Below, one piece after another: positions 4,811 through 50,650 of a stretch of 51,209 nt of DNA. How positions within the stretch are numbered: the stretch's first letter is position 1; the number at the start of each line of letters is the position of its first letter. A model generated the notes under the pieces. It saw only the letters and a list, made by a program, of their open reading frames with translations. It had not been told where the DNA came from and searched no databases. Source of the stretch: Escherichia phage BubbaBully; the sequence record OR896831.1, one strand, 5' to 3'. The position numbers and the translations under genes were made by a program.

Positions 4811-5290
4811 ATGGCAATTCCAGCAACTTATCAAGCTACAATGGCTCGCGCACTGCCTGGCCAGGTTTCCGACACCTCAGCATATAACATTGACGGCGCG
4901 TGTGTTCTCGACGGCAGCGCTAACGTCCTTGTGGGCGTTGCGGTTCAGAATGGTGGTGTTGATTCTATGGGTAACAAACTGATCAAGCCTATGGCTGTAA
5001 GCGGCAAAGCTTACGGCGTTGCAATCCGCTCCCACTTCCAGACCGAAGCGGCAGACGGGCGAATGGTTTACGTTCCAGGCGGCGGCATCAACGTAATGAA
5101 TGAGGGTCGCGTTTGGATGCTGGCGGTAGATGGTCAGACTCAGAAGCCTTATGGTACTGCGATCAAGATCGAAGATTCCACTGGCAAGGTGGACACCGAA
5201 TCTGGCACTGTAGAGCCTAACTGGATCGCTACTGGTGACTTCACAGAGTTCCAGGGTCTTAAGTTGATTGAGGTTCAGGTTAAGCAGTAA
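4811..5290 (+). CDS. head-associated protein, paralog A (decoration-like)
   Basis: 159 aa; shares GRVW...WxxTGD pattern with the next ORF; upstream of major capsid gene. Confidence 0.45.
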   Translation: MAIPATYQATMARALPGQVSDTSAYNIDGACVLDGSANVLVGVAVQNGGVDSMGNKLIKPMAVSGKAYGVAIRSHFQTEAADGRMVYVPGGGINVMNEGRVWMLAVDGQTQKPYGTAIKIEDSTGKVDTESGTVEPNWIATGDFTEFQGLKLIEVQVKQ

Positions 5291-5296
5291 TAAAAT

Positions 5297-5321
5297 GGCG
5301 CTCGGTTGAGCGCCTTTTTTT
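5297..5321 (+). terminator. intrinsic terminator-like hairpin
   Basis: GGCGCTC-ggtt-GAGCGCC followed by T7; between the two paralogous head genes. Confidence 0.55.
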
Positions 5322-5795: not shown

Positions 5796-5807
5796 CACAA
5801 AAATCTA

Positions 5808-5835
5808 TTGCACGTTTAACAAAAAGTGCTATCAT
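5808..5835 (+). promoter_or_regulatory. sigma70-like promoter for major capsid gene (TTGCAC-16-TGcTATCAT)
   Basis: -35 TTGCAC 5808-5813, 16-bp spacer, extended -10 TG-n-TATCAT 5827-5835; the reversed box lies within the spacer and -10. Confidence 0.45.
5815..5832 (-). promoter_or_regulatory. conserved box, reversed orientation, overlapping capsid promoter
   Basis: TTTAACAAAAAGTGCTAT is the reverse complement of the box; followed by 8-bp hairpin 5839-5859 and strong RBS. Confidence 0.5.
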
Positions 5836-5876
5836 TGAGGCTGTTAATCGCTAACAGCCTTTAAGGAGAAAGAAAC

Positions 5877-6839
5877 ATGACTAAAAAGTATGACGAATTT
5901 GACGCCAGCGTTGTAACCGCTCACCTGCAAATGCAGGGCGTTAAAAATGACGCTTCCGATATGGGTATCTGGACTGCGCAGGAGCTTCACAAGATCCGCT
6001 CCTCTGCATACGAAAAAGAATACCCTGTAGGCTCCGCGCTGCGAGTGTTCCCTGTCACCAACGAACTGAGCGACACTGACAAGACTTTCGAATACCAGAC
6101 TTTCGATAAAGTTGGCTACGCTAAAATCATCGCTGATTATACCGACGACCTGCCAACCGTTGACGCGCTGATGTCAACCGAGTTTGGTAAAGTGTTCCGC
6201 TTGGGTAACGCTTTCCTGATCTCCATTGACGAAATCAAAGCAGGTCAACGCACTGGTAAGAGCCTGAGCGCTCGCAAGGCAAACGCCGCGCAGAATGCTC
6301 ACGACCAGCTTGTAAACTTCCTGGTGTTCAAGGGTTCCAAGCCGCACAAAATTCTGAGCGTGTTTGAACACCCTAACCTGACCAAGATCGTAGCCGCTAA
6401 AAAATGGTACGACTCAAGCTCAAAAGCCAAAGAGCCAGAGCAAGCTTTCGACGATCTGACTGCGGCAATCGAAGCGCTGGAGACTCAGACCAACGGGCAG
6501 CACCGCGCTACCCACATTCTGATCCCGCCAAGCGTCCGTAAAGTTCTGATGGTTCGCATGGAAAATACCACTGAGAGCTACCTGGAATACTTCCAGAAGC
6601 AAAACGGCGGTATCACCATTGAAGCAATCGCAGAGCTTGAAGATATCGACGGTTCCGGCGGCAAGGGCGTACTGGTGTACGAAAAAGATCCAATGAATAT
6701 GTCCATTGAGATCCCCGAAGCATTCAATATGCTGCCAGCGCAGCCTAAAGACCTGCATTTCAAAGTGCCTTGCACCTCTAAATGCACTGGTCTGACAATC
6801 TATCGCCCATTAACTCTTGTGTTAATCACTGGCGTGTAA
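5877..6839 (+). CDS. major capsid protein
   Basis: 320 aa; own promoter, strong RBS AAGGAGAAAG, terminator downstream; position after scaffold and decoration genes. Confidence 0.65.
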   Translation: MTKKYDEFDASVVTAHLQMQGVKNDASDMGIWTAQELHKIRSSAYEKEYPVGSALRVFPVTNELSDTDKTFEYQTFDKVGYAKIIADYTDDLPTVDALMSTEFGKVFRLGNAFLISIDEIKAGQRTGKSLSARKANAAQNAHDQLVNFLVFKGSKPHKILSVFEHPNLTKIVAAKKWYDSSSKAKEPEQAFDDLTAAIEALETQTNGQHRATHILIPPSVRKVLMVRMENTTESYLEYFQKQNGGITIEAIAELEDIDGSGGKGVLVYEKDPMNMSIEIPEAFNMLPAQPKDLHFKVPCTSKCTGLTIYRPLTLVLITGV

Positions 6840-6845
6840 TATTAT

Positions 6846-6874
6846 GGGAGCCTCTTACGAGGTTCCCATTTTTT
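6846..6874 (+). terminator. intrinsic terminator after capsid gene
   Basis: GGGAGCCTC-ttac-GAGGTTCCC followed by T6. Confidence 0.6.
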
Positions 6875-6890
6875 GTTTAGGAGATAAACA

Positions 6891-7163
6891 ATGGCTAAAG
6901 AAAAAACTGTAACGCTGGTAAACTCTGGTGTTTGCTCAATCTTCATCAAAGGTGATCGCTATGTTCCAGGTGATGAAATTGAAGTTTTCGAGTCCGATCT
7001 GGAGACTTCCGGCATTGAAATGCTAATCGCTCGCGGCGACTTAAAAGTTAAGAACGACGACGAAAAAACCGAAGCTGTTAAAGCGCGTGTAAACAAGCGC
7101 AAGAAAGCAAGCCCTACCGAGGGCAAGACGAAAAATGAGCTTGAGGACGGCGGCGAATATTAA
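6891..7163 (+). CDS. hypothetical small structural-region protein
   Basis: 90 aa, strong RBS, flanked by terminator hairpins on both sides. Confidence 0.5.
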   Translation: MAKEKTVTLVNSGVCSIFIKGDRYVPGDEIEVFESDLETSGIEMLIARGDLKVKNDDEKTEAVKARVNKRKKASPTEGKTKNELEDGGEY

Positions 7164-7169
7164 TCATGA

Positions 7170-7195
7170 GGGAGCCTAGTGCTCCCTTTTCTTTT
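7170..7195 (+). terminator. intrinsic terminator-like hairpin
   Basis: GGGAGC-ctagt-GCTCCC followed by a T-rich run. Confidence 0.55.
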
Positions 7196-7206
7196 AGGAG
7201 GAAACC

Positions 7207-7605
7207 ATGAATCAAGAAGTGATAAATCAGATCGTAAAAATCGCACCTCCTTTTGCTGGTGTAGATCCGGCTCTTATTCAGGCATGGATTGAGCTAGCAG
7301 AGGAATTCGTTTGCAAGAAGCGATTCAAAGACTCATACACAAAAGCTGTAGCTCTCTATACATTGCACCTCATGACTCTCGACGGAGCGATGAAACAGGA
7401 AGGGGAGGCGGTAGAGTCATACTCCCAGCGCGTTGCATCATTCTCCCTGAGCGGTGAATTCTCGCAGACGTTTGACCGCGTTTCTTCCGATTCATCCGGC
7501 AAGGAAATCCGACAAACTCCGTGGGGTAAAATGTACGAGGCATTGAACCGCAAGCGCGGAGGAGGTTTTGGGCTTGTAACTGGATTGCGTCGGAGGACTT
7601 GCTAA
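7207..7605 (+). CDS. putative head-tail connector / adaptor protein
   Basis: 132 aa; position between capsid and tail genes; function assigned by synteny only. Confidence 0.4.
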
Positions 7606-7976
7606 TGAATTATGCTAACATTGCACGAATGGCTAAATCTGGCATTGCATTTTTTAGTGATCGCAATGGCGTGTTTAAGCTTATCACTAGCGGAGGTGGC
7701 GTTGAGATTGTCGGCGGCGTTGAGGTTGAAAAGCCGGAGCAGTCAACAACAATTAAGGGGCTTATCCGAGCGCCAAAGGTTCGAGAGGTTGACGGCGAAA
7801 CAATCCGCGTAACTGACAAGCTCGGAGTTTTTGACGCTGATGTTGAAATCATGAACGGAAACCATATCGATGTTGATGGTGAGCGCTACGTTGTTGTTGA
7901 GGCAAGACCAATCAGGCCAACAGGGATCACAGTTGCTTATCGTCCAATCCTGCGGAGGGTTGCTGTTCATGGCTAA
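7599..7976 (+). CDS. putative head closure protein
   Basis: 125 aa; overlapping start with upstream gene; synteny only. Confidence 0.35.
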
Positions 7977-8409
7977 CTACTCGATCCGAGAATTTCACGG
8001 CAATATTGACAAGTGGATAAACGCGGTTGAGAGCGGCCTTACTGATTGCATTGAGATTTTCGGCGGGAAAGTGCAGGAGGCACTCGTTAAAGGCTCGCCA
8101 GTTGATACGGGAAGATTCCGAGGAAACTGGCAAGTAACAGCAAACGAGCCTCCGCTTTACGCGCTGAACCAATACGACAAGGACGGCAGCAAAACAATCG
8201 CATACGGAGAGCGGGCAATTCGCGCTATAATGCGCGGCGGCGGCGCGGTTCGTGCTATCTACTTTTCAAACATGCTTATCTACGCCAACGCGCTAGAGTA
8301 CGGGCATTCAAAACAGGCTCCCGCTGGTGTTGTTGGCATCGTTGCAATTCGCTTACGCTCATTCATGGCGGAGGCTATTAGAGAGTCGAGGGCTAAAAAT
8401 GGATTATGA
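7969..8409 (+). CDS. putative neck / tail completion protein
   Basis: Start at ATG 7969 overlapping upstream stop (ATGGCTAA); synteny only. Confidence 0.4.
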   Translation: MANYSIREFHGNIDKWINAVESGLTDCIEIFGGKVQEALVKGSPVDTGRFRGNWQVTANEPPLYALNQYDKDGSKTIAYGERAIRAIMRGGGAVRAIYFSNMLIYANALEYGHSKQAPAGVVGIVAIRLRSFMAEAIRESRAKNGL

Positions 8410-8800
8410 TCTCATGCTGGCGGCACGCAAGGCATTCGCCGCTGAATACGAAAACAGATACGCAATCGCTTATGAAAACGTGGAGTTTACGCCTCCTGGT
8501 GATGGCTCTATGTGGTTGGCGTTCCATTATGTTGAGTCAGAACCGTTGAGGTTATCACTTGATCGCAAATGCGTTTCCTATATGGGGATGGTGCAAATCA
8601 ATGTCACGTTTGCGCCTGGAACCGGAACGGATAAGCCGCGCAAGCTGGCAAAAGAGATTGCTGATTTTTTCAAAGATGGTAAAATGCTGGACGTGGGCTA
8701 CATCTACGAGGGCGCTAGCGTCCGGTCAGTCCAGAAATCAGAAACGGGCTGGATTGTTCCGATCCGGTTTGTTGTAAGAGTTGACACAAAAGGAGAATAA
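8399..8800 (+). CDS. putative tail terminator protein
   Basis: Start at ATG 8399; synteny only. Confidence 0.4.
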   Translation: MDYDLMLAARKAFAAEYENRYAIAYENVEFTPPGDGSMWLAFHYVESEPLRLSLDRKCVSYMGMVQINVTFAPGTGTDKPRKLAKEIADFFKDGKMLDVGYIYEGASVRSVQKSETGWIVPIRFVVRVDTKGE

Positions 8801-8801
8801 A

Positions 8802-9461
8802 ATGCATCTTCCAAACGGTTCACAGATTTTTATCGAAGCCTCTCGCGGCACAGAGCTTTCAGCTAGCGCGATCACCAATGCAGAAAAACCAGTTTTCACA
8901 ATGAGCGACACTGACGATCTAGCAAAAGGTGATTACGTTATTGTAACGGAGTCCTCATGGGGTAAACTGCTAGATCGCGTCCTGCGGGTGAGCGAGGTTT
9001 CCAGCAACTCAAGCGCCACCCTTGAAGGTATCGACACCACCGACACTAACGTTTTCCCTAACGGCGCAACTGCAAAGATCGCAAAGATTAAAGCATGGTC
9101 TGAAATCCCTTGCGTTCAGGATCTTGCACAGGACGGCGGCGAGCAGCAATACTATACTTACCAGTGCCTGTCCGACGACCAGGAGCAGCAGCTACCTACC
9201 TACAAGAGCGCCGTTTCCCTGACGTACACCTTTGCGCACGAGTACGATAACGCAATCTATCCTCTGCTGCGTAAGGCAGATGAAAACGGTGAAGTCACCG
9301 CAATGCGCATGTACGTGCCGAAAGCGAAAGAAATGCGTTGCTGGGCTGGCGTGCTGTCATTCAACGAGATCCCGCAAACTGCGGTTAACGAAATGGAAAC
9401 CGTTTCCCTTTCTTGCTCGCTGAAAGGCCGCTACACATTCCTTCCTGCATCACAGGACTAA
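8802..9461 (+). CDS. major tail protein
   Basis: 219 aa after RBS AAAGGAGAA; directly upstream of the G/GT chaperone and tape measure genes; terminator follows. Confidence 0.6.
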   Translation: MHLPNGSQIFIEASRGTELSASAITNAEKPVFTMSDTDDLAKGDYVIVTESSWGKLLDRVLRVSEVSSNSSATLEGIDTTDTNVFPNGATAKIAKIKAWSEIPCVQDLAQDGGEQQYYTYQCLSDDQEQQLPTYKSAVSLTYTFAHEYDNAIYPLLRKADENGEVTAMRMYVPKAKEMRCWAGVLSFNEIPQTAVNEMETVSLSCSLKGRYTFLPASQD

Positions 9462-9467
9462 TCACAA

Positions 9468-9502
9468 GGGGCGTTGCGCCCCTTTTTTTATTCCTGTAAA
9501 AT
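9468..9502 (+). promoter_or_regulatory. terminator-promoter fusion unit (hairpin + T7 + TTGCGC-17-TAAAAT)
   Basis: GGGGCG-ttg-CGCCCC stem, T-run 9483-9489; -35 TTGCGC formed by loop and 3' arm (9474-9479), -10 TAAAAT 9497-9502. Confidence 0.5.
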
Positions 9503-9528
9503 CACTCTACCAAATTCAAACAATCCAC

Positions 9529-9547
9529 TTTTAACAAAAAGTGCTAT
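9529..9547 (-). promoter_or_regulatory. conserved box, reversed orientation, in tail-operon leader
   Basis: TTTTAACAAAAAGTGCTAT immediately upstream of the RBS of gene G. Confidence 0.5.
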
Positions 9548-9562
9548 TTAGGAGAAAGAGCA

Positions 9563-9880
9563 ATGGCAAAGATGAAACTTACGCTTGCACCACTTCCAGA
9601 CTTCAAACTTCCAGTATCTTTTGTTATGCCTAACGGCGACGAGGGTCAAATCACCTTCACCGTGCGCCACCTGAAAGCGAAAGAAGTTCAGGAGCTTTAC
9701 GAAAGCGAAAACATCGTCACCGATTCAGATTTCATCATGAAGCTTGCGACGGGCTGGAACCTTGAGGAAGAATTCAACGAGGAAAACGCAAAGACTCTTG
9801 TCGAGTTCTACCCAGGCGCTGCGCTTGCCCTGACTGGTGCATATCTTTCCGCGCTGGCTGGTCAACGAGTAAAAAACTAA
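9563..9880 (+). CDS. tail assembly chaperone (G-like)
   Basis: 105 aa between major tail and tape measure genes; ends at slippery heptamer. Confidence 0.7.
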   Translation: MAKMKLTLAPLPDFKLPVSFVMPNGDEGQITFTVRHLKAKEVQELYESENIVTDSDFIMKLATGWNLEEEFNEENAKTLVEFYPGAALALTGAYLSALAGQRVKN

Positions 9881-10196: not shown

Positions 10197-10221
10197 GAGC
10201 GCCTTTTGGCGCTCTTTTCTT
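10197..10221 (+). terminator. terminator-like hairpin before tape measure gene
   Basis: GAGCGCC-tttt-GGCGCTC followed by a T-rich run. Confidence 0.45.
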
Positions 10222-10237
10222 ATCTGGAGGTAACTTA

Positions 10238-13308: not shown

Positions 13309-13346
13309 AAGCCGCCTTTGCGCGGCTTTTTTATTGGTGCTATAAT
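13309..13346 (+). promoter_or_regulatory. terminator-promoter fusion unit (hairpin + T6 + TTGCGC-17-TATAAT)
   Basis: AAGCCGC/GCGGCTT stem; -35 TTGCGC 13318-13323 in loop and 3' arm; -10 TATAAT 13341-13346. Confidence 0.5.
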
Positions 13347-14851: not shown

Positions 14852-15437
14852 AACAATCAAACTTTCCGGCTCCCTGGGGCGGCGCTTTGGTGTCTTTCAT
14901 CGTTTCGCCGTCGATAGCTTTCCAGAGGCAATTCGAGCGCTATCAAGCCAGGTTGAAGGATTCAAAGACTACATGCAAAGCGAAATCGGATCGCGCATGA
15001 AATACGCAATCTTTGTTGACGGCGTTAACGTTGGAGAGCATAACGATAAAGCATGGCAATGCAGCAAAGAGATCAGGATTTTGCCTATTCCAACAGGTTC
15101 AAAATCTGGCGGTTTGTTTCAGGTAGTTTTGGGCGCTGTTATTATGGCGACTGCGTTTTTCACTGGTGGTGCATCGCTGGCGGCTATGGGTGCGCTAGCA
15201 TCCTCCGCTTTCATGATGGGCGGCGCAATGGTGCTGGGTGGAGTAATGCAGATGATTTCACCGCAGCAAGGCGGCTCTATGATGGAAATGCAGAGCGCAG
15301 AAAACAAACCTTCTTATGCGTTCGGCGGAGCGGTAAACACAACGGCGGCTGGATATCCTATCCCGTTACCGTATGGAGAGAGAACCGTTGGCGGCGCTAT
15401 CTGGTCGGCAGGTAGTTACGCAGAGGACAAAGTTTAA
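14838..15437 (+). CDS. tail assembly protein (lambda I-like)
   Basis: 199 aa with hydrophobic Gly/Ala/Met-rich C-terminal region; synteny. Confidence 0.6.
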   Translation: METVKTIKLSGSLGRRFGVFHRFAVDSFPEAIRALSSQVEGFKDYMQSEIGSRMKYAIFVDGVNVGEHNDKAWQCSKEIRILPIPTGSKSGGLFQVVLGAVIMATAFFTGGASLAAMGALASSAFMMGGAMVLGGVMQMISPQQGGSMMEMQSAENKPSYAFGGAVNTTAAGYPIPLPYGERTVGGAIWSAGSYAEDKV

Positions 15438-15443
15438 AGCACA

Positions 15444-15479
15444 CCCCGCCTTGCGCGGGGTTTTTTGCGCCAGTATAAT
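15444..15479 (+). promoter_or_regulatory. terminator-promoter fusion unit (hairpin + T6 + TTGCGC-17-TATAAT)
   Basis: CCCCGC-cttgc-GCGGGG stem; -35 TTGCGC 15451-15456; -10 TATAAT 15474-15479. Confidence 0.5.
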
Positions 15480-15515
15480 GTGCAAACCGATAAACAGCAC
15501 AAAAGGTTAAAAGAT

Positions 15516-19866: not shown

Positions 19867-20132
19867 TATTTACACCTCACATCATAGAAATATTCTGATG
19901 GTTGCCACCTGTTAACAAAGCGAACGCTTTTATTATCAGCGCTCATGCGGTATTGCTTTTGACCGAATCGGTTTTCGCGAACGCCGCTAATATTTACTTC
20001 ATAAGCGCCAGCGACGACAAAGGTCTTTATGTCGTATTTCGCCGTGCATTCGACCTCTCTGAAATTTCCCGTCGCAGGTGCGCCGCAACTGCTCAGGAGT
20101 GCCGCGGCGATTAAAGCCGCAAATCTTTTCAT
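19866..20132 (-). CDS. cor: outer-membrane lipoprotein, Cor/Llp-like superinfection exclusion candidate
   Basis: 88 aa with lipoprotein signal and lipobox (LLSSC); first gene of the leftward unit next to receptor-binding-like ORFs. Confidence 0.55.
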   Translation of the reverse strand: MKRFAALIAAALLSSCGAPATGNFREVECTAKYDIKTFVVAGAYEVNISGVRENRFGQKQYRMSADNKSVRFVNRWQPSEYFYDVRCK

Positions 20133-20564
20133 AATTAATTCCTCGCTTCATTAGTGAGTAATAACAATACCATAAATGGAGATTATTTCACAACCAAAAT
20201 CATCTTTGTTCTTTTTGTTTCTCGTTGTTCACGACAGCACCCACCGTAGAATCGCGCAACGTTTTAGAACAGAAAAAACAAAATAAATCATCTATAATAT
20301 ATAATAAAATCAATAGTTTAGTTTATATGTATTTGTATATTGTTATTTATTGTTTCCACTGTTTCAGTGTTAATTGATGTATTGGCTTGCTTTCGTCTGG
20401 ATATCTCTATTAGCCATTTTATGTGTGTATTTGTACAAACCCCACCGCAAATCCGTGAACAATGAAACAGAAAATAACGACGTTTAAAATCATGCACTTA
20501 AGCGCTGATTTTGTTATCTAGGTGGAAAGATGCGTTTCGAGAACAGAAAAAACAATTGATGGTA

Positions 20565-20592
20565 TTGACTAAACGCCATAAATGGCTACAAT
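20565..20592 (+). promoter_or_regulatory. canonical sigma70-like promoter (TTGACT-16-TACAAT) for recombination operon
   Basis: Near-consensus hexamers preceded by an A-tract; about 30 nt upstream of the exonuclease RBS. Confidence 0.55.
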
Positions 20593-20622
20593 GCACGTAT
20601 ACCAACACACAGGAGTAAGAAA

Positions 20623-25253: not shown

Positions 25254-27392
25254 TTACTGCAACGCTTTGATTAGCAATTTAAGATCTTCAATCTCTGCTT
25301 TCAGGTTGTCGATCTCCTCTTGTTGCTTGTTAACTATCTCCTTTTGCTCTTTGAATGCGTTAACCAAAAGTGCAACAACGCCGTTATAGTTAACACCTTT
25401 AATTGCCTCTCCTTTTGGATCTGGCTCTCCATCGTTATTCAAAGAATGAACCGCTTCCGGTAAAACTCTTTCAACATCTTGCGCTATCAGTCCAGCCTCA
25501 ATACTATAAACGCTGTTTTCATCTTCAATCAGATTGTTTCGTTTGTAGTAAGTGTAACCAGTTAGATAGTCAATTTTGTCGGATGCCGTTTCGATCTCTT
25601 TTAGATTTGCTTTCATCCTTATGTCAGATGTGCTAACCCATTGGTTACAAACTGCACCTCCAGCGTTATTGAAAATGAAGTCTGCACCCTTTACATAAAG
25701 GTGAGTTTCAGCGCCGCCAGCAGACCAGTTAACACAATCCAATCCGGTGATCCAATCGTGACCCCAATGAACAGCCTTAAAAATACTTATTGCAGCATCA
25801 TGTGACGGAATTTCGCACAAAACACCAGTCGCCCTATCACGCCAAGCTGAAAAACTACCAGCTTGCAACTTACCACCAATAAAAAATGAACCAGAACCAG
25901 TCCTAGTACCTTCAACATACGCAAAGCGAGTGTTTTCCGGCGCATATGATGTAATTGGCTTGTATGCCGCAAGTTGCTCTGGAGTCCACGCTATAATATT
26001 TTGACCGTCAGAAACAGCCTGGATAACTCCGTCACTACTCCACCTTAAACCGCTATCGCTATCGCCAATCGCAATCGCATTTGCACCAAGCACATGATCA
26101 GACATGCCTATAGCTAGAGATGAAAAGTTTGAAAGATATCCGCGCTCATCTATCTGCAAATAACTATTACCCCCTCCAGGCCTGAATGTATGAATTGTTG
26201 TTTTAGACAACCCACCTTTGATCTCGTTATAAATTCTAGAGTTTGAAACATCGTTTCCGTTTGCATGTCTATTTGTAAGGTAAATTAAACCAGAGTTAGC
26301 ACCATTCTTTTCAATAAGATGCACGCCCCTAAAAACAGGAATATCAGCCTCACCAATGCCAAAATTGTTTCTTGCTTGACTTATGTTTGTTGCACCAGTT
26401 CCGCCCTGTTGAACACCAAGAGGAATAAACTGTTGCGATGCGGTATTCCAGTAACCCCAACCATCGTTACCAACTGTAAGGTATTTGATCTTATCCGGCG
26501 AATGAATAAACGTTTCACCATCGCCCTGATTAAATCGGTCAACCTTCAACGCCTCCCTTGCAAGGTCTTTGTTTGCAAGATCATTAAGGTTTTGATCTTT
26601 ATGCAGAAGATTTTCAGGCTGTACCTGTTGCACCAATTGGCGAGCTTCATCACGCGCAGTTTCAGCACCAGACTTTGCGTTATTGGCATCAGCGGCATGA
26701 TTTCCAGCCGCATCACGCGCCAATTCAGCCTGATCGCGAGCGCCGAAAGCCTCTTGCTTAATGGCTTCCGTTTCGGTTACGGCTGAATCTTTAATCTGTT
26801 CTGTTTGCGCCTTTATTGCGTCAGTATCTGCCTTAATCTGGTTTGTTTCAGCGACAGCAGAATCCTTTATCTGTTCTGTTTGCGCCTTTATTGCGTCAGT
26901 ATCTGCCTTAATCTGGTTTGTTTCAGCGACAGCAGAATCCTTTATCTGTTGAGTGTCGTTTTTAAGTTGTTCAGTTGCAGCGAGATTGGCGGCTGTTTTT
27001 TCTGCATCACCTTTAACCTGGTTAACCAAATCCTGCAAAGCTTTCAGGTCAAAGTTTTTGAAAAATTCAATAGCTTCCTCGATCTGAGTCTCTTTGCTTT
27101 GATAGTAGCGCAGAGTTTCCGCAACATCTTGCGCGAGGCCATCAACCGTGATTGAGTCATGCAGCAAAATGATGTAATTGCTTCGCCCAATTTCAGCGCC
27201 GCCAGTTGTGATGGCGCGGATTTGTGTGTCACTGATAACTTCACTGATCACAGCCGCTTGAAAAGGAGCATCAATAAAAAAGATTGTTGCACCAGGGCGG
27301 ATTAGTGAAAGTTGCTCACGCCATTTTGTATCATATCCGGTGATGTATCCTTGAGCGTCCATAGACGCTTGACCCTTGCGGTAAATAGCCAT
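25254..27392 (-). CDS. tail fibre protein with C-terminal intramolecular chaperone (peptidase S74-like)
   Basis: 712 aa; C-terminal SDIRMK...YNGVVALLVNAFKEQ chaperone-type segment; internal 25-aa tandem repeats. Confidence 0.8.
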   Translation of the reverse strand: MAIYRKGQASMDAQGYITGYDTKWREQLSLIRPGATIFFIDAPFQAAVISEVISDTQIRAITTGGAEIGRSNYIILLHDSITVDGLAQDVAETLRYYQSKETQIEEAIEFFKNFDLKALQDLVNQVKGDAEKTAANLAATEQLKNDTQQIKDSAVAETNQIKADTDAIKAQTEQIKDSAVAETNQIKADTDAIKAQTEQIKDSAVTETEAIKQEAFGARDQAELARDAAGNHAADANNAKSGAETARDEARQLVQQVQPENLLHKDQNLNDLANKDLAREALKVDRFNQGDGETFIHSPDKIKYLTVGNDGWGYWNTASQQFIPLGVQQGGTGATNISQARNNFGIGEADIPVFRGVHLIEKNGANSGLIYLTNRHANGNDVSNSRIYNEIKGGLSKTTIHTFRPGGGNSYLQIDERGYLSNFSSLAIGMSDHVLGANAIAIGDSDSGLRWSSDGVIQAVSDGQNIIAWTPEQLAAYKPITSYAPENTRFAYVEGTRTGSGSFFIGGKLQAGSFSAWRDRATGVLCEIPSHDAAISIFKAVHWGHDWITGLDCVNWSAGGAETHLYVKGADFIFNNAGGAVCNQWVSTSDIRMKANLKEIETASDKIDYLTGYTYYKRNNLIEDENSVYSIEAGLIAQDVERVLPEAVHSLNNDGEPDPKGEAIKGVNYNGVVALLVNAFKEQKEIVNKQQEEIDNLKAEIEDLKLLIKALQ
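26782..26949. repeat. 75-bp tandem direct repeat (about 2.2 copies) inside tail fibre gene
   Basis: Near-identical 75-nt units in phase with the reading frame, encoding TEQIKDSAVAETNQIKADTDAIKAQ repeats. Confidence 0.8.
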
Positions 27393-27458
27393 ATTTAAAT
27401 TCTCCTAAATATCACGTTTTGTTAATGACAAGCTGGATTATAGCATTGCGCAAGGCAT

Positions 27459-28510: not shown

Positions 28511-28951
28511 TTAGCTATTCGTGCTGTTTATGAAGTCCGACTCTTTCACGACGCGCAGCATTTCGTATCGGTCGCATTTCGTCGTTAGCGCTTTTCCGTT
28601 GGAGTCAAATCTCAGGTCAGGACGGCAGAATGAAGCTCGATATCCCTTGCAGCCGTTTCGCTTATAGTCGGCGTGAACCTTTTCGGCTCCAGAAACTGAA
28701 ATCATCCCGCGCTTGCGCCACTGCTGAATAACTTGGTGAGTAACCTTTAAACGCCTTGTCATTTCCGCCTGAGATCCGTAATATTCGCAAACGGCATCTA
28801 GACGAGCACGCAATCCGGCTTTGACTTCATCCTTTAGAACGTAGTAGCCTGTTTTGCGCTTGCGTTTTTTCTTGTCTTTACCGCGCTTTACCCCGTTGTT
28901 GCCATTGATTGTGCGCTTGTCAATTTCGCCAGTTGATGCAGCAATTTTCAT
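28511..28951 (-). CDS. putative HTH DNA-binding protein with basic N-terminus and Cys cluster
   Basis: Start at internal ATG 28951 (GGAGG RBS); track ORF N-terminus overlaps the box of the divergent promoter; HTH-like segment MTRRLKVTHQVIQQWRKRGMIS. Confidence 0.45.
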   Translation of the reverse strand: MKIAASTGEIDKRTINGNNGVKRGKDKKKRKRKTGYYVLKDEVKAGLRARLDAVCEYYGSQAEMTRRLKVTHQVIQQWRKRGMISVSGAEKVHADYKRNGCKGYRASFCRPDLRFDSNGKALTTKCDRYEMLRVVKESDFINSTNS

Positions 28952-28964
28952 ATTAAAACCTCCG

Positions 28965-29008
28965 ATAGCACTTTTTGCTAAAAACATTCAAAACGTAGGC
29001 GCTATTAT
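28965..29008 (+). promoter_or_regulatory. box promoter (box + 22-bp spacer + TATTAT) for helicase gene
   Basis: ATAGCACTTTTTGCTAAAA 28965-28983; -10 TATTAT 29003-29008; 32 nt upstream of the helicase start. Confidence 0.55.
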
Positions 29009-29040
29009 ACATTCAATCGGTTAACGAATAAAGGTTAAAA

Positions 29041-33420: not shown

Positions 33421-33464
33421 ATAGCACTTTTTGTTAAAAATGCCCGGCGAAAGTCGGGCATAAT
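33421..33464 (+). promoter_or_regulatory. box promoter (box + hairpin + CATAAT)
   Basis: Box begins directly after TAA stop; stem GCCCGGC/GTCGGGC; -10 at 33459-33464. Confidence 0.55.
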
Positions 33465-33496
33465 CATTTCCAACGAAAACCACTGAGGAAAACGAA

Positions 33497-34038: not shown

Positions 34039-35157
34039 ATGATTCAGAAAATGACAGACCAGCAGTTTAAAGAAGCACGAGCAGAGGGCAAAACCTACAA
34101 GCAGATCGCGGAGGAGTTCGGCTTGAATGTTCGCACCGTTGAGCGCCGCGCGGCACGACTTGCCCGCCAAGGTGAAACTAACACGAAAGGCGCACCAGGT
34201 TTTGCGGTTGTTCGTGAGTCAGTCCTGACCCGCGCAAACGGCGAAGAAGTGATGCGCTGGACTATCACCAACAAAGATAAAGAGCAGTTGGAAGCGCTCA
34301 TGCAAGCCGCGATGGAGGCATTCGCTGAGGAAGTGCCACGCCTTGAGCCTCAGCCGGAAAGCCACAAAGACTACAGCGAAAGCCTTGCGCTATATCCGAT
34401 CTTTGATATGCACATTGGTGCAATGGCTCATAAGCACGAGTGCGGCGAGAATTGGGACACGGCAACCGCCGAGAAGGTCATGAATGACTTCTTTGATTAT
34501 GCTGTAGAGTGTGCGCCAAACAGCGAAAAGGCTGTGCTCCTGATTGGTGGCGATATGCTTCACAGTGACGGCCTTGAGGCTGTAACACCTGCTAGCGGTC
34601 ACGTTCTTGATCAGGATAGCCGCTATGCCAAACTGGTTTATGTCGCAATCCGAGCTACTCGTCGCGCTATCTCCTTGATGTTGACCAAACACAAAGAGAT
34701 TGAGGTTCAGGTTATCGAGGGCAATCATGACCAGTCAGGGATGATCTGGCTACGCGCAGCAATGGCGGCGGCATACGAGAACGAGCCACGCGTGACGGTT
34801 GATGTTTCTCCTCGCGTAGTGCATCACACGCAGTACGGAAAAACCTTCCTTGCTTATCACCACGGGCACACTGTGCGCAAGCCGGAGGCGTTGTTGATGA
34901 TGTGCGCGTCGGATTGGCGAGAGGACTTCGGGATCTCAAAATCAATGTATGCTCACGTTGGACATTGGCATCACCAGACCGTAACAGAAACCAGCCTGGG
35001 GATTGTTGAAGTTCACAGCACAATGGCGGCTAAAGATGCATATGCAGCTCGCGGAGGTTGGCGCTCTCGTCGTCGCGCGGCGGTTATCATCTACGACAAA
35101 GAGCACGGCGAGATCGGGCGCTTCATGTTCTACCCTGAAATGATGGAGTCAAAATAA
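34039..35157 (+). CDS. metallophosphoesterase (calcineurin-like) with N-terminal HTH-like region
   Basis: 372 aa; motifs DMH, GGDMLHSD, GNHD, HHGH; N-terminal KTYKQIAEEFGLNVRTVERR resembles an HTH. Confidence 0.65.
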   Translation: MIQKMTDQQFKEARAEGKTYKQIAEEFGLNVRTVERRAARLARQGETNTKGAPGFAVVRESVLTRANGEEVMRWTITNKDKEQLEALMQAAMEAFAEEVPRLEPQPESHKDYSESLALYPIFDMHIGAMAHKHECGENWDTATAEKVMNDFFDYAVECAPNSEKAVLLIGGDMLHSDGLEAVTPASGHVLDQDSRYAKLVYVAIRATRRAISLMLTKHKEIEVQVIEGNHDQSGMIWLRAAMAAAYENEPRVTVDVSPRVVHHTQYGKTFLAYHHGHTVRKPEALLMMCASDWREDFGISKSMYAHVGHWHHQTVTETSLGIVEVHSTMAAKDAYAARGGWRSRRRAAVIIYDKEHGEIGRFMFYPEMMESK

Positions 35158-41916: not shown

Positions 41917-41994
41917 TTAATCGGTAGTCAGTGATTTTGATGATTGCTTGACCAGTTTTGTAAGGTTGTTTTTGATGCCCGTCAACTTTTGTGT

Positions 41995-42035
41995 GATTGT
42001 GATGATTGTTGATTAGATTTGATTGGATTTGATTG
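41995..42035. repeat. iteron-like array of GATTG direct repeats
   Basis: GATTG at 41995, 42004, 42021, 42031 and GATTA at 42011, spaced 7-10 bp, in the AT-rich divergent region. Confidence 0.5.
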
Positions 42036-42503
42036 TGGGAATCAGCATGGCCTGACGATGCCGTTTTTGCGCTCTCTAAAACTCCACTCTGTTATCTTCT
42101 GTTTACAATCGTTTCCTCTTGTTACCAAAAGTACGGTGGCGTAGTTTGTTCGCGTTTTTCGCGTGGCAGAAACAAAAAAAAACTTTTAATCTCCCTATAA
42201 ACAACTAATAAAATCAATAGTTTATTTTATATATATTATATTTGTTTTCACTACGTTATACTTGTTCCATATGGTATAGGGTGGTTATGGGATTTTATTA
42301 TTGGTGGTATTGGTTAATTTATAGGCATGTTCCGCTCAGGATGTTTACGATTCATCATTTCGTTGTGGTTGCTTTGGGTGACATATACATATTCATTATG
42401 GCCTCCGAAAAAACTGTAACGGCTGTAACATGCAAAAAACAGAATTTATCATCATGTAAATCAACAACTTACGACAAATTTTGTTTTTCGGCTCAAAAAA
42501 AAC

Positions 42504-42532
42504 TTGTGGAAACCGATTGTAACATGCATAAT
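42504..42532 (+). promoter_or_regulatory. sigma70-like promoter (TTGTGG-17-CATAAT) for first rightward early genes
   Basis: Hexamers with 17-bp spacer and upstream A-tract; no box; CA-rich leader before ATG 42565. Confidence 0.45.
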
Positions 42533-42564
42533 GCACACCGAAATGAACAAACGGAGGTAAAACG

Positions 42565-42990
42565 ATGTCAGATCAATCATTTGGCGATCAATTGCGTGCA
42601 GCGGCACGAATGCTGGCGAGCGGCGAGCGTGACGAAATCATCATGACCGACTACCAGTTACAGCAAGCGTCGGGAAAGGAGAAAATCAACCCAAGCCATA
42701 TCCGTACAACTATGGCGCGAGAGGTTCGCACCTTGGGAGCTATCAGCGTGAAGCGAATCACGGATCCGGTTGGATACGTTTGCACGTTCAACCCTGACCC
42801 AAAGAAACGAGCGATTGCCAGCGACGAGCTACCAGCAATCAAGGCGCGTGCGGCAAACAAGGCTCTAAAATCAATCGCTGAGGTGATGCCGAGCCTAACA
42901 GACCTGCAAGGCGAGCAGCTACAGGGAGCAATGATTGCAATTCAGCGCTACCAGGATTTAATAAAGAAGCAAATCAACGAGGAGGTTTAA
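42565..42990 (+). CDS. hypothetical early protein
   Basis: 141-aa first ORF of rightward early block; weak HTH-like segment. Confidence 0.5.
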   Translation: MSDQSFGDQLRAAARMLASGERDEIIMTDYQLQQASGKEKINPSHIRTTMAREVRTLGAISVKRITDPVGYVCTFNPDPKKRAIASDELPAIKARAANKALKSIAEVMPSLTDLQGEQLQGAMIAIQRYQDLIKKQINEEV

Positions 42991-43260: not shown

Positions 43261-43304
43261 ATAGCACTTTTTGTTAAAAACGCCCCGCGCGAGTGGGGCA
43301 TAAT
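43261..43304 (+). promoter_or_regulatory. box promoter (box + hairpin + CATAAT)
   Basis: Box 43261-43279; stem GCCCC/GGGGC; -10 at 43299-43304. Confidence 0.55.
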
Positions 43305-43334
43305 GCACCCAACGAAACAACACGGAGAAATGAA

Positions 43335-46146: not shown

Positions 46147-46191
46147 ATAGCACTTTTTGCTAAAGACTTTCCGCAAGGCCATTGGTATAGT
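46147..46191 (+). promoter_or_regulatory. box promoter (box + 23 bp + TG-n-TATAGT in hairpin loop)
   Basis: Box ATAGCACTTTTTGCTAAAG 46147-46165; TATAGT 46186-46191 within AAGGCCA/TGGCCTT hairpin. Confidence 0.55.
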
Positions 46192-46229
46192 GGCCTTATT
46201 GAAAGCAACCACGCAAACAGGAGATAAAA

Positions 46230-47433: not shown

Positions 47434-47473
47434 CACGAATTGCTAAAACTTCCGCGAGGGCATTTGGTATAGT
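47430..47473 (+). promoter_or_regulatory. box promoter (box + 22 bp + TG-n-TATAGT in hairpin loop)
   Basis: Box 47430-47448 overlapping TAG stop; TATAGT 47468-47473 within GAGGGCA/TGCCCTC hairpin. Confidence 0.55.
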
Positions 47474-47515
47474 GCCCTCATTGAAGCAAAGCAACCAATC
47501 AAAGGAGATAACGAA

Positions 47516-48611: not shown

Positions 48612-48651
48612 CACTTTTTGTTAAAGCTTCCGCGAGGACATTTGTTAAAGT
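48608..48651 (+). promoter_or_regulatory. box promoter (box + 22 bp + TAAAGT in hairpin loop)
   Basis: Box 48608-48626 overlapping TAG stop; TAAAGT 48646-48651 within GAGGACA/TGTCCTC hairpin. Confidence 0.5.
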
Positions 48652-48685
48652 GTCCTCATTGAAGCGAAACACGGAGATTTAGGAA

Positions 48686-50613: not shown

Positions 50614-50650
50614 CCCCGCGTTTGCGGGGTTTTTTTGTGCCTGTTATAAT
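50614..50650 (+). promoter_or_regulatory. terminator-promoter fusion unit (hairpin + T7 + TTGCGG-17-TG-n-TATAAT)
   Basis: CCCCGC-gttt-GCGGGG stem; -35 TTGCGG 50622-50627; extended -10 50642-50650; upstream of putative TerS. Confidence 0.5.

Follow-up and report, generated by a model that had tools for sequence, protein, structure and literature searches.

The 51,209-nucleotide (nt) DNA of Escherichia phage BubbaBully (OR896831.1; the whole stretch is called the window below) is the complete or nearly complete 51 kb genome of a T1-like siphovirus of the Drexlerviridae. Its late structural genes occupy the + strand at ~1-19 kb, the lateral tail fibre gene lies on the - strand (25254-27392), and the remaining genome is given to replication, recombination, lysis and numerous small early genes. 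Our subject is an 18-nt sequence, the box, that recurs between the genes of this phage, and in particular two copies of it that stand in inverted orientation within the capsid and tail region, one upstream of the capsid gene (5815-5832) and one upstream of the chaperone gene. Both match TTTAACAAAAAGTGCTAT at 18 of 18 positions, which bears out a preliminary description of this DNA; the second box, which that description had placed at 9529-9547, is real but spans 9530-9547, position 9529 being a flanking T. The capsid-to-tail segment is 88-92% identical to those of Enterobacter phage N5822, Klebsiella phage Samwise and Escherichia phages Henu7 and JohannLBurckhardt (Henuseptimavirus-like), and JohannLBurckhardt and T1 have the same gene order as the window.

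Conservation was followed in related loci taken as 11-kb pieces. For the capsid site, 79 related loci were retrieved via the capsid protein (55-99% identity) and compared together with three full genomes; the counts given for this site refer to 80 loci with a readable site, comprising 54 distinct sequences. Counts for the chaperone site refer to 76 related loci, with 18 distinct box-carrying sequences. All predicted start positions assume that transcription begins 7 nt after the -10 hexamer.

Results

The box and its usual promoter layout

The pattern ATAGCAC-N4-TGYTAAA has 24 matches in the window at two mismatches or fewer, 19 of them exact, where 0.76 would be expected, and the 18-mer TTTAACAAAAAGTGCTAT occurs 12 times at three mismatches or fewer, against an expectation of 0.13. 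The core of the box is near-palindromic (TAGCA-N5-TG[C/T]TA), its centre takes two main forms (TTTT and GAAT), it contains a conserved TTG and it is flanked by A-tracts. To our knowledge, the consensus sites of CRP, IHF, Fis, LexA, DnaA and the lambda operators do not fit it.

Sixteen of the 19 exact copies share a rigid layout, in which the 18-nt box is followed by exactly 20 nt (21 in one case), a -10 hexamer, a leader, a ribosome-binding site (RBS) and a gene on the same strand. The hexamers are TATAAT, TATAGT, TATTAT or CATAAT, with the general form (T/C)AnnnT, and the leader is ~30 nt long and often contains CAACGAAA. None of these 16 copies has a -35 element at 17 nt from the -10; the TTGYTA within the box lies 22 nt from it. 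The box extends from -50 to -33 with its centre at -42, in agreement with the preliminary placement at about -42, provided that the start lies 7 nt past the -10. A site near -41.5, a weak or absent -35 and a recognisable -10 make up the anatomy of a class II activator-dependent promoter, and this anatomy is seen in the 16 copies; the copy at 9530 shows it on the - strand. Box consensus and layout are shared with T1, JohannLBurckhardt and the Webervirus Shelby; these sequences, the fixed geometry and the conservation of both are read directly from the DNA or from its comparison with relatives.

By our reading of the list of open reading frames (ORFs), eighteen of the exact copies are intergenic and one (33762) overlaps a called ORF. 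The exact copies outside the rigid layout are those at 1569 (portal), 5815 (capsid) and 27409 (fibre; also called a one-mismatch copy), while the copy at 9530 obeys the layout on the strand opposite to the genes. By our reading, no non-architectural copy lies outside the predicted late promoters described below.

The repeat itself is already known in T1-like phages. The re-annotation of phage TLS lists 18 intergenic 21-nt repeats (DR1-DR18) with the consensus aaATAGCACnnnTTGnTAAAA, noted also in T1, Rtp and Rogue1, and its authors named stoperators, enhancers or UP elements as options while listing the function as an open question. The box of the window agrees with the TLS repeat in consensus, in its A/T/G centre subtypes, in its many intergenic copies and in its position ~76 nt before start codons. 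The TLS text states that all repeats point with transcription and that only three sigma70 promoters were found. This orientation fails for the window copies at 5815, 9530 and 27409, which point against the adjacent gene, and DR7 of TLS (- strand, 15044..15024) is itself the capsid-site copy, opposing the adjacent gene as in the window. In the literature covered, which did not extend to the T1 genome paper, we found no description of the embedded capsid promoter, of the fixed 20-nt geometry or of opposed promoters for the chaperone and regulator genes, and a search with the box sequence as a string returned nothing relevant.

Two further features accompany the forward box promoters. Transcripts of box promoters repeatedly show a short motif, CAACGAAA or CATCGAAA, after the predicted start and ahead of the RBS (for example at 43311-43318 and 33470-33477). 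In addition, many forward box promoters have GC-rich inverted repeats, either within the 20-nt spacer or flanking the -10 so that the hexamer lies in the loop (for example 33441-33458, 43281-43299, 46175-46198, 47452-47478 and 48630-48656), and the box promoters of T1 and Shelby have the same repeats. These could be terminators for upstream read-through that have been folded into the next promoter, or structures acting at the level of DNA.

A reversed box within the predicted capsid promoter

Upstream of the capsid gene the + strand reads, in order, AAAAA (5799-5803), TTGCAC (5808-5813), a single G, the reversed box ATAGCACTTTTTGTTAAA (5815-5832, - strand) and TATCAT (5830-5835), with the TG at 5827-5828 and the first three bases of the -10 derived from the box. 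The anatomy is that of a sigma70-type promoter, TTGCAC-16-TATCAT with TG at -15/-14, located 42 nt before the capsid ATG and with a predicted start near 5842, and it corresponds to the TTGCAC-16-TGcTATCAT promoter of the preliminary description. The A-tract, just upstream of the -35 at about -43..-39, resembles a proximal UP element and is kept in the 54 distinct relatives. A simple sigma70 scan of the window did not list the capsid promoter because TTGCAC matches at only 3/6 positions; relatives have a -35 (TTGAAC, TTGACG or TTGACC) that matches at 4-5/6.

The embedded arrangement was found in all 80 loci with a readable site, at capsid protein identities down to 55%. In each, an A-tract is followed by a -35 (TTGCAC, TTGAAC, TTGACG or TTGACC) at a constant distance from the box, then by a single base and the box in reverse, and last by a -10 (TATCAT, TATATT, TATTCT or TATTAT) that starts with the TAT of the box. 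Information content is high over the A-tract, the TTG, the box and the TAT, and low in both flanks. The centre of the box switches as a block by lineage: Webervirus has GAATC/GAATT where the T1, TLS and Henu7 groups have AAAAA/G, and both forms are canonical subtypes used at the forward promoters of the same genomes. The sequence of a sigma70 spacer is normally free to vary. Since the whole spacer is conserved here, the comparison argues that the box itself is under selection. Its position, about -27..-10, falls between the -35 and +1, where an operator overlapping a core promoter would lie.

Read in its own direction, the capsid copy is followed at +20 by TATCCG, a hexamer lacking the -7 T in the window and in most relatives. 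There is therefore no usable - strand -10, and the capsid copy is not a promoter in that direction; its reading as an antisense promoter was ruled out on this ground. Activation by a MerR-like protein bound in the spacer was also ruled out, as the capsid spacer is 16 nt long (17, by our reading, in three relatives) and 19-20 nt would be needed. The best reading of the capsid copy is thus a predicted operator within a strong-looking host-type promoter.

It could be argued that the boxes need no phage factor at all and serve the host polymerase as UP-like or displaced -35-like (TTGnTA) elements, the capsid box being simply a good spacer that yields TGnTAT. UP elements were one option raised by the TLS authors, the A-tract flanks and the conserved TTG suit a reading by host polymerase, and the reversed box does build the extended -10 of the capsid promoter. 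However, the best-conserved positions of the box contain G and C (AGCAC, TG), unlike UP elements, and a TTGnTA 22 nt from the -10 is too far away for sigma70. Moreover, TGnTAT needs only 6 positions, whereas all 16 positions of the capsid spacer are kept to the box consensus with the centre switching as a block between subtypes. We therefore consider it unlikely that host polymerase alone accounts for the boxes, and favour recognition of the box by a phage factor.

A conserved hairpin (5839-5859, + strand) begins ~3 nt past the capsid -10. RNAalifold on 12 relatives gave 9 pairs, 6 of them with compensatory changes, and the equivalent hairpin is annotated in TLS as terminator T35. The 5' arm of the hairpin overlaps the predicted start; RNA initiated at this promoter would therefore miss part of the stem. 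The hairpin is followed by a T-run in T1 and TLS, and the promoter lies just upstream of its own terminator, as at the portal site described below; Webervirus has a terminator upstream of the promoter instead.

Predicted opposed promoters upstream of the chaperone gene

The major tail gene is followed by an intrinsic terminator (9466-9490, + strand), made of a hairpin at 9466-9484 with an 8-bp stem (6 GC pairs) and a run of seven T, and a hairpin with a T-run was found at the same position in the relatives compared. A few nt past the T-run lies the predicted late promoter of the chaperone and tape-measure genes, TG plus TAAAAT (9495-9502, + strand; -10 at 9497-9502), with its predicted start at A9509. 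This + strand unit (T-run, N5-12, TG/TAnAAT) is present in 73 of the 76 related loci, with or without the box. The reversed box (9530-9547, - strand) stands between the terminator and the chaperone RBS (9550-9554; ATG at 9563), at about +22..+39 of the leader, so that its described position between a terminator-promoter unit and the RBS was correct.

On the - strand the same box is followed, after 20 nt, by TAGAGT (9509..9504) preceded by TG, that is, by the extended -10 TGgTAGAGT (9504-9512) of a box-type promoter with a predicted start at A9497 and the box at -50..-33. The preliminary description gave this as box, 22 bp and TGGTAGAGT, which is the same arrangement counted differently, and offered an antisense promoter at 9504-9547 as the alternative to an operator in the leader. 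The box does lie in the leader, but the antisense promoter is the better supported reading. A TAnnnT stands exactly 20 nt from the box in all 18 distinct box carriers, with 11 different hexamers and with TG before it in 15 of the 18, against a background TAnnnT frequency of 1.1% per position. The sequence of the 20-nt spacer diverges strongly among these carriers, with no indels, and the segment between the box and the ATG varies in length. Fixed spacing and conserved -10 positions despite a divergent spacer thus point to a - strand promoter of the box class.

The two predicted promoters overlap face-to-face, with starts at 9509 and 9497, ~12 nt apart. As their -10 elements and starts interlock, one polymerase is predicted to exclude the other. 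We saw no CAACGAAA motif, RBS or plausible ORF in the - strand RNA from 9497; the only small - strand ORF in range (GTG, 9465..9385, 26 amino acids) had no visible RBS before it. The RNA would meet the terminator hairpin from behind, and on that side no good U-run follows the hairpin.

A further account has the reversed copies act solely through antisense RNA that pairs with late mRNAs, both of them being - strand promoters. The copy at 9530 has a full - strand promoter layout that is kept in relatives, and, compared with shuffled sequence, the predicted 5' end of its RNA forms a more stable fold (z = -2.9). The capsid copy, as seen above, lacks the -7 T that is essential to such a promoter; the RNA from 9497 overlaps the chaperone mRNA by only ~13 nt; and we found no conserved terminator or target for it. 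Pairing as the only mode of action is accordingly improbable, and we prefer to see the antisense promoter as a competitor of the late promoter that it overlaps.

As part of a ~35-nt block, the chaperone box is found in 20 of the 76 loci, T1 included, and is missing from TLS, all Weberviruses, JohannLBurckhardt and Henu7, the last two of which have a capsid protein 98% identical to that of the window. Such a distribution raises the question of whether the boxes are mainly recombination linkers, like the promoter-stem-loop motifs (PeSLs) described in T4-like phages (PMC4122927), and the reversed late copies relics of shuffling with no regulatory role. The presence or absence of the block among phages with 98% identical capsid proteins (L001 versus L003, L029 and L080) would suit this view, as would the GC-rich stem-loops of many box promoters. 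Like the boxes, PeSLs are described as repeated promoter and stem-loop units between genes whose presence varies among close relatives, and, as far as that source was available to us, they are proposed to serve shuffling, regulation through reversed copies lying outside the model (PMC4122927). Yet a relic would decay, and the capsid copy is intact in every readable locus, while the chaperone copy keeps its exact spacing and -10 positions in all of its variants. We rate the linker account as quite unlikely, and continue with a regulatory role for the reversed copies.

Boxes at other predicted late promoters

By our reading, a box stands over the core or directly behind it in five of the seven promoters predicted for late genes, namely those of the portal, capsid, chaperone, J and fibre genes. 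At the portal site (1569-1598, + strand) a forward box of the GAAT type is followed after 6 nt by TACAAT (1593-1598), so that the box, centred near -28, overlies the -35 region. A terminator hairpin with a T-run (1602-1619) follows the TACAAT, and the predicted start lies inside its 5' arm, so that read-through from terminase would stop while transcripts begun there would escape. The layout of box, 6-7 nt, TATAAT or TACAAT, and hairpin was found in 8 relatives.

The site of the tail tip gene J (15474-15511, + strand) has a TATAAT (15474-15479) after a terminator and a degenerate forward box, ACAGCACAAAAGGTTAAA (15494-15511), in the leader at about +9..+26, with equivalents in T1 (25021), JohannLBurckhardt (16189) and TLS (DR8). 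At the lateral tail fibre gene (27409-27445, - strand), TGcTATAAT (27445..27437) is followed by a box (27426..27409) at about +5..+22 and then by the RBS. This box is degenerate (ATATCACGTTTTGTTAAT) and reversed relative to the fibre gene, and has its T1 equivalent at 34902. The terminator-promoter design of the chaperone site recurs at TGcTATAAT 13338-13346, at TATAAT 15474-15479, at TGcTATAAT 27445..27437 (- strand) and at TGtTATAAT 50642-50650.

The late operon also contains terminator-like hairpins that stand directly before an RBS with no promoter between them (5285-5320, 6844-6880, 7168-7200 and 10197-10235). These probably attenuate or stabilise transcripts instead of ending them.

A candidate box-binding regulator

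The candidate for a box-binding protein is a 146-residue Cro-like helix-turn-helix (HTH) regulator (28511-28951, - strand), a homologue of T1 gp23, whose fold is the all-alpha HTH of the Cro/CI (XRE-like) type. Scans of 18 other early ORFs against Pfam and PHROGs gave no DNA-binding match; ~40 small ORFs were outside the scan. It is plausible that the Cro-like regulator binds the box.

Its gene shares a divergent promoter pair (28965-29009, both strands) with the helicase gene. A box (28965-28982) and TATTAT (29003-29008) form the predicted helicase promoter, and TATAAT (29009..29004) belongs to the sigma70-type promoter of the regulator, such that the two -10 hexamers overlap on opposite strands (TATTATA) and the box lies at about +14..+31 of the regulator leader. 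The divergent layout was found in four genomes, the window, JohannLBurckhardt, T1 (TTGAAT-17-TATAAT) and Shelby (TTGTCA-16-TATAAT), and the TLS annotation has its counterparts as P57 and DR11. The regulator looks like an immediate-early, self-limiting gene, and the box in its leader suggests negative autoregulation. Here, as at the chaperone site, a box promoter stands against one of the host type, which makes this the second such pair.

Conservation in the regulator is highest in a basic arm predicted to be disordered (residues 1-36; 28844-28951, - strand), with the pattern DKRTxNGNNGTxRGxDKKxRKR, in which NGNNG is invariant. This arm is more conserved than the recognition helix of the HTH, which speaks against the candidate, and the invariant residues lie mainly within it.

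With the regulator leader, three leaders of the window have a box in reverse 1-3 nt ahead of their Shine-Dalgarno sequence (9530, 27409 and 28965), and the transcribed strand of the box is A-rich. The reversed box could, in principle, act as RNA in the leaders of the chaperone, fibre and regulator genes and tune translation or stability there. Against this, the capsid copy lies upstream of the predicted start and would be missing from the transcripts of that promoter, the distance between box and RBS is not kept in T1, and every forward copy has a -10 downstream of it at a fixed distance, an indication of a role at the level of DNA. An action of the box as RNA therefore seems very improbable to us, and a DNA site remains our reading in what follows.

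Discussion

We propose that a sequence-specific factor encoded by the phage recognises the box and acts with the host sigma70 RNA polymerase, and that this factor is most likely the Cro-like regulator. At ~16 early and middle promoters without a -35, a factor bound at -42 would occupy the position of a class II activator. The late promoters that re-use the box are ones that host polymerase could probably use unaided. In the capsid spacer, the bound factor would exclude polymerase and the box would be an operator; at the portal, fibre and J positions, it would hinder polymerase. At the chaperone site, the factor would draw polymerase to a gene-less antisense promoter and thereby occlude the late promoter, and the bound box would also lie within the late leader. 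That a factor binds the box, activates and represses, when it does so and which protein it is are inferences from the sequence. We regard this model as a whole, in which an early factor activates from -42 and represses or occludes late promoters through the same box, as about evenly balanced between right and wrong; it takes up the single-factor temporal switch that the preliminary description had suggested.

Several observations weigh against it. The late promoters are themselves predictions, and no mapped transcription start sites or RNA sequencing data were found in the literature for any member of the Drexlerviridae. Nothing in the sequence accounts for the lifting of repression late in infection; as a guess, autoregulation together with titration by replicating boxes might end it. 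The predicted recognition helix of the regulator varies (THQVIQQW, SNQTVQGW, TTKVVTGW) while the box stays identical, and the link between the two is therefore weak. A distant relative (L084) retains only ATAGCAC..TTG of the box, from which the site may be asymmetric rather than a palindrome for a dimer. The chaperone box is dispensable, being absent from 56 of the 76 loci, close relatives included. In addition, two of the three key - strand -10 positions there, A9504 and A9509, also occur in relatives without the box and could be constrained by the + strand promoter instead. Only box carriers have the TG, the fixed spacing and T9508, at which position the box-less relatives have C.

A stronger version of the model can be put forward only tentatively, and we think it rather doubtful. 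In that version, one Cro-like protein would time the whole programme of the T1 family, as activator from -42 at ~20 early and middle promoters, through operators in the otherwise constitutive capsid promoter and in other late promoters, and as driver of a gene-less decoy promoter whose activation would repress the chaperone and tape-measure promoter by occlusion, with late genes coming on when replicating boxes outnumber the self-limiting regulator.

The logic of the proposed circuit resembles that of several known systems. At OR of lambda, CI bound to a site with its centre at -42 activates PRM, and CI on the core promoter of PR represses PR; the C proteins of restriction-modification systems likewise activate from about -42 and repress when bound over the core. 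Here too, one HTH protein (the candidate has a fold of the Cro/CI type) could activate from about -42, repress at a site overlapping the core and regulate itself, although the setting is a virulent phage with ~20 dispersed single sites and no clustered operator. At the middle promoters of T4, a MotA box replaces the -35 while the sigma70 -10 is kept; that box is centred at -30 and the sigma appropriator AsiA is needed. Both phages thus place a box of their own where the -35 would be, but the box of the window is centred at -42. In coliphages 186 (pR/pL) and P2 (Pe/Pc), face-to-face or overlapping promoters interfere with each other. The chaperone pair would differ from these in the mere ~12 nt between its predicted starts and in having one partner without a gene, a partner that would be a pure decoy or source of interference.

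The stoperators of mycobacteriophage L5, a parallel proposed by the TLS authors, are likewise short sites in many copies within or just after promoters and in leaders. They differ in having one orientation to transcription, in only repressing and in belonging to a temperate phage, whereas most boxes of the window stand at a fixed, activator-like distance upstream of a -10 and the copies in leaders occur in both orientations.

T1 is one of the seven classical T phages. The reversed copies lend the repeat a concrete, testable logic, with activator geometry at early promoters, operator positions at late ones and an opposed promoter pair through which activation could become repression. If correct, the model would describe a compact timing circuit, run by a single factor, in a large group of phages of Escherichia, Klebsiella, Enterobacter and Salmonella that are candidates for therapy, and would yield portable phage promoters and operators. 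Should it be wrong, one would still have to explain why an 18-bp sequence within a promoter spacer is so deeply conserved.

Other features of the genome

Two large AT-rich non-coding regions (20130-20620 and 41920-42565) lie where blocks of genes diverge. They share a 32-nt element (20302-20333 and 42206-42237; 94% identical), and each ends in a sigma70-type promoter without a box, TTGACT-17-TACAAT near 20567 and TTGTGG-17-CATAAT near 42506. Both regions are candidates for immediate-early promoters or replication origins. Finally, the lateral tail fibre gene contains three tandem 75-nt repeats (26752-26976) with 61-80% identity.

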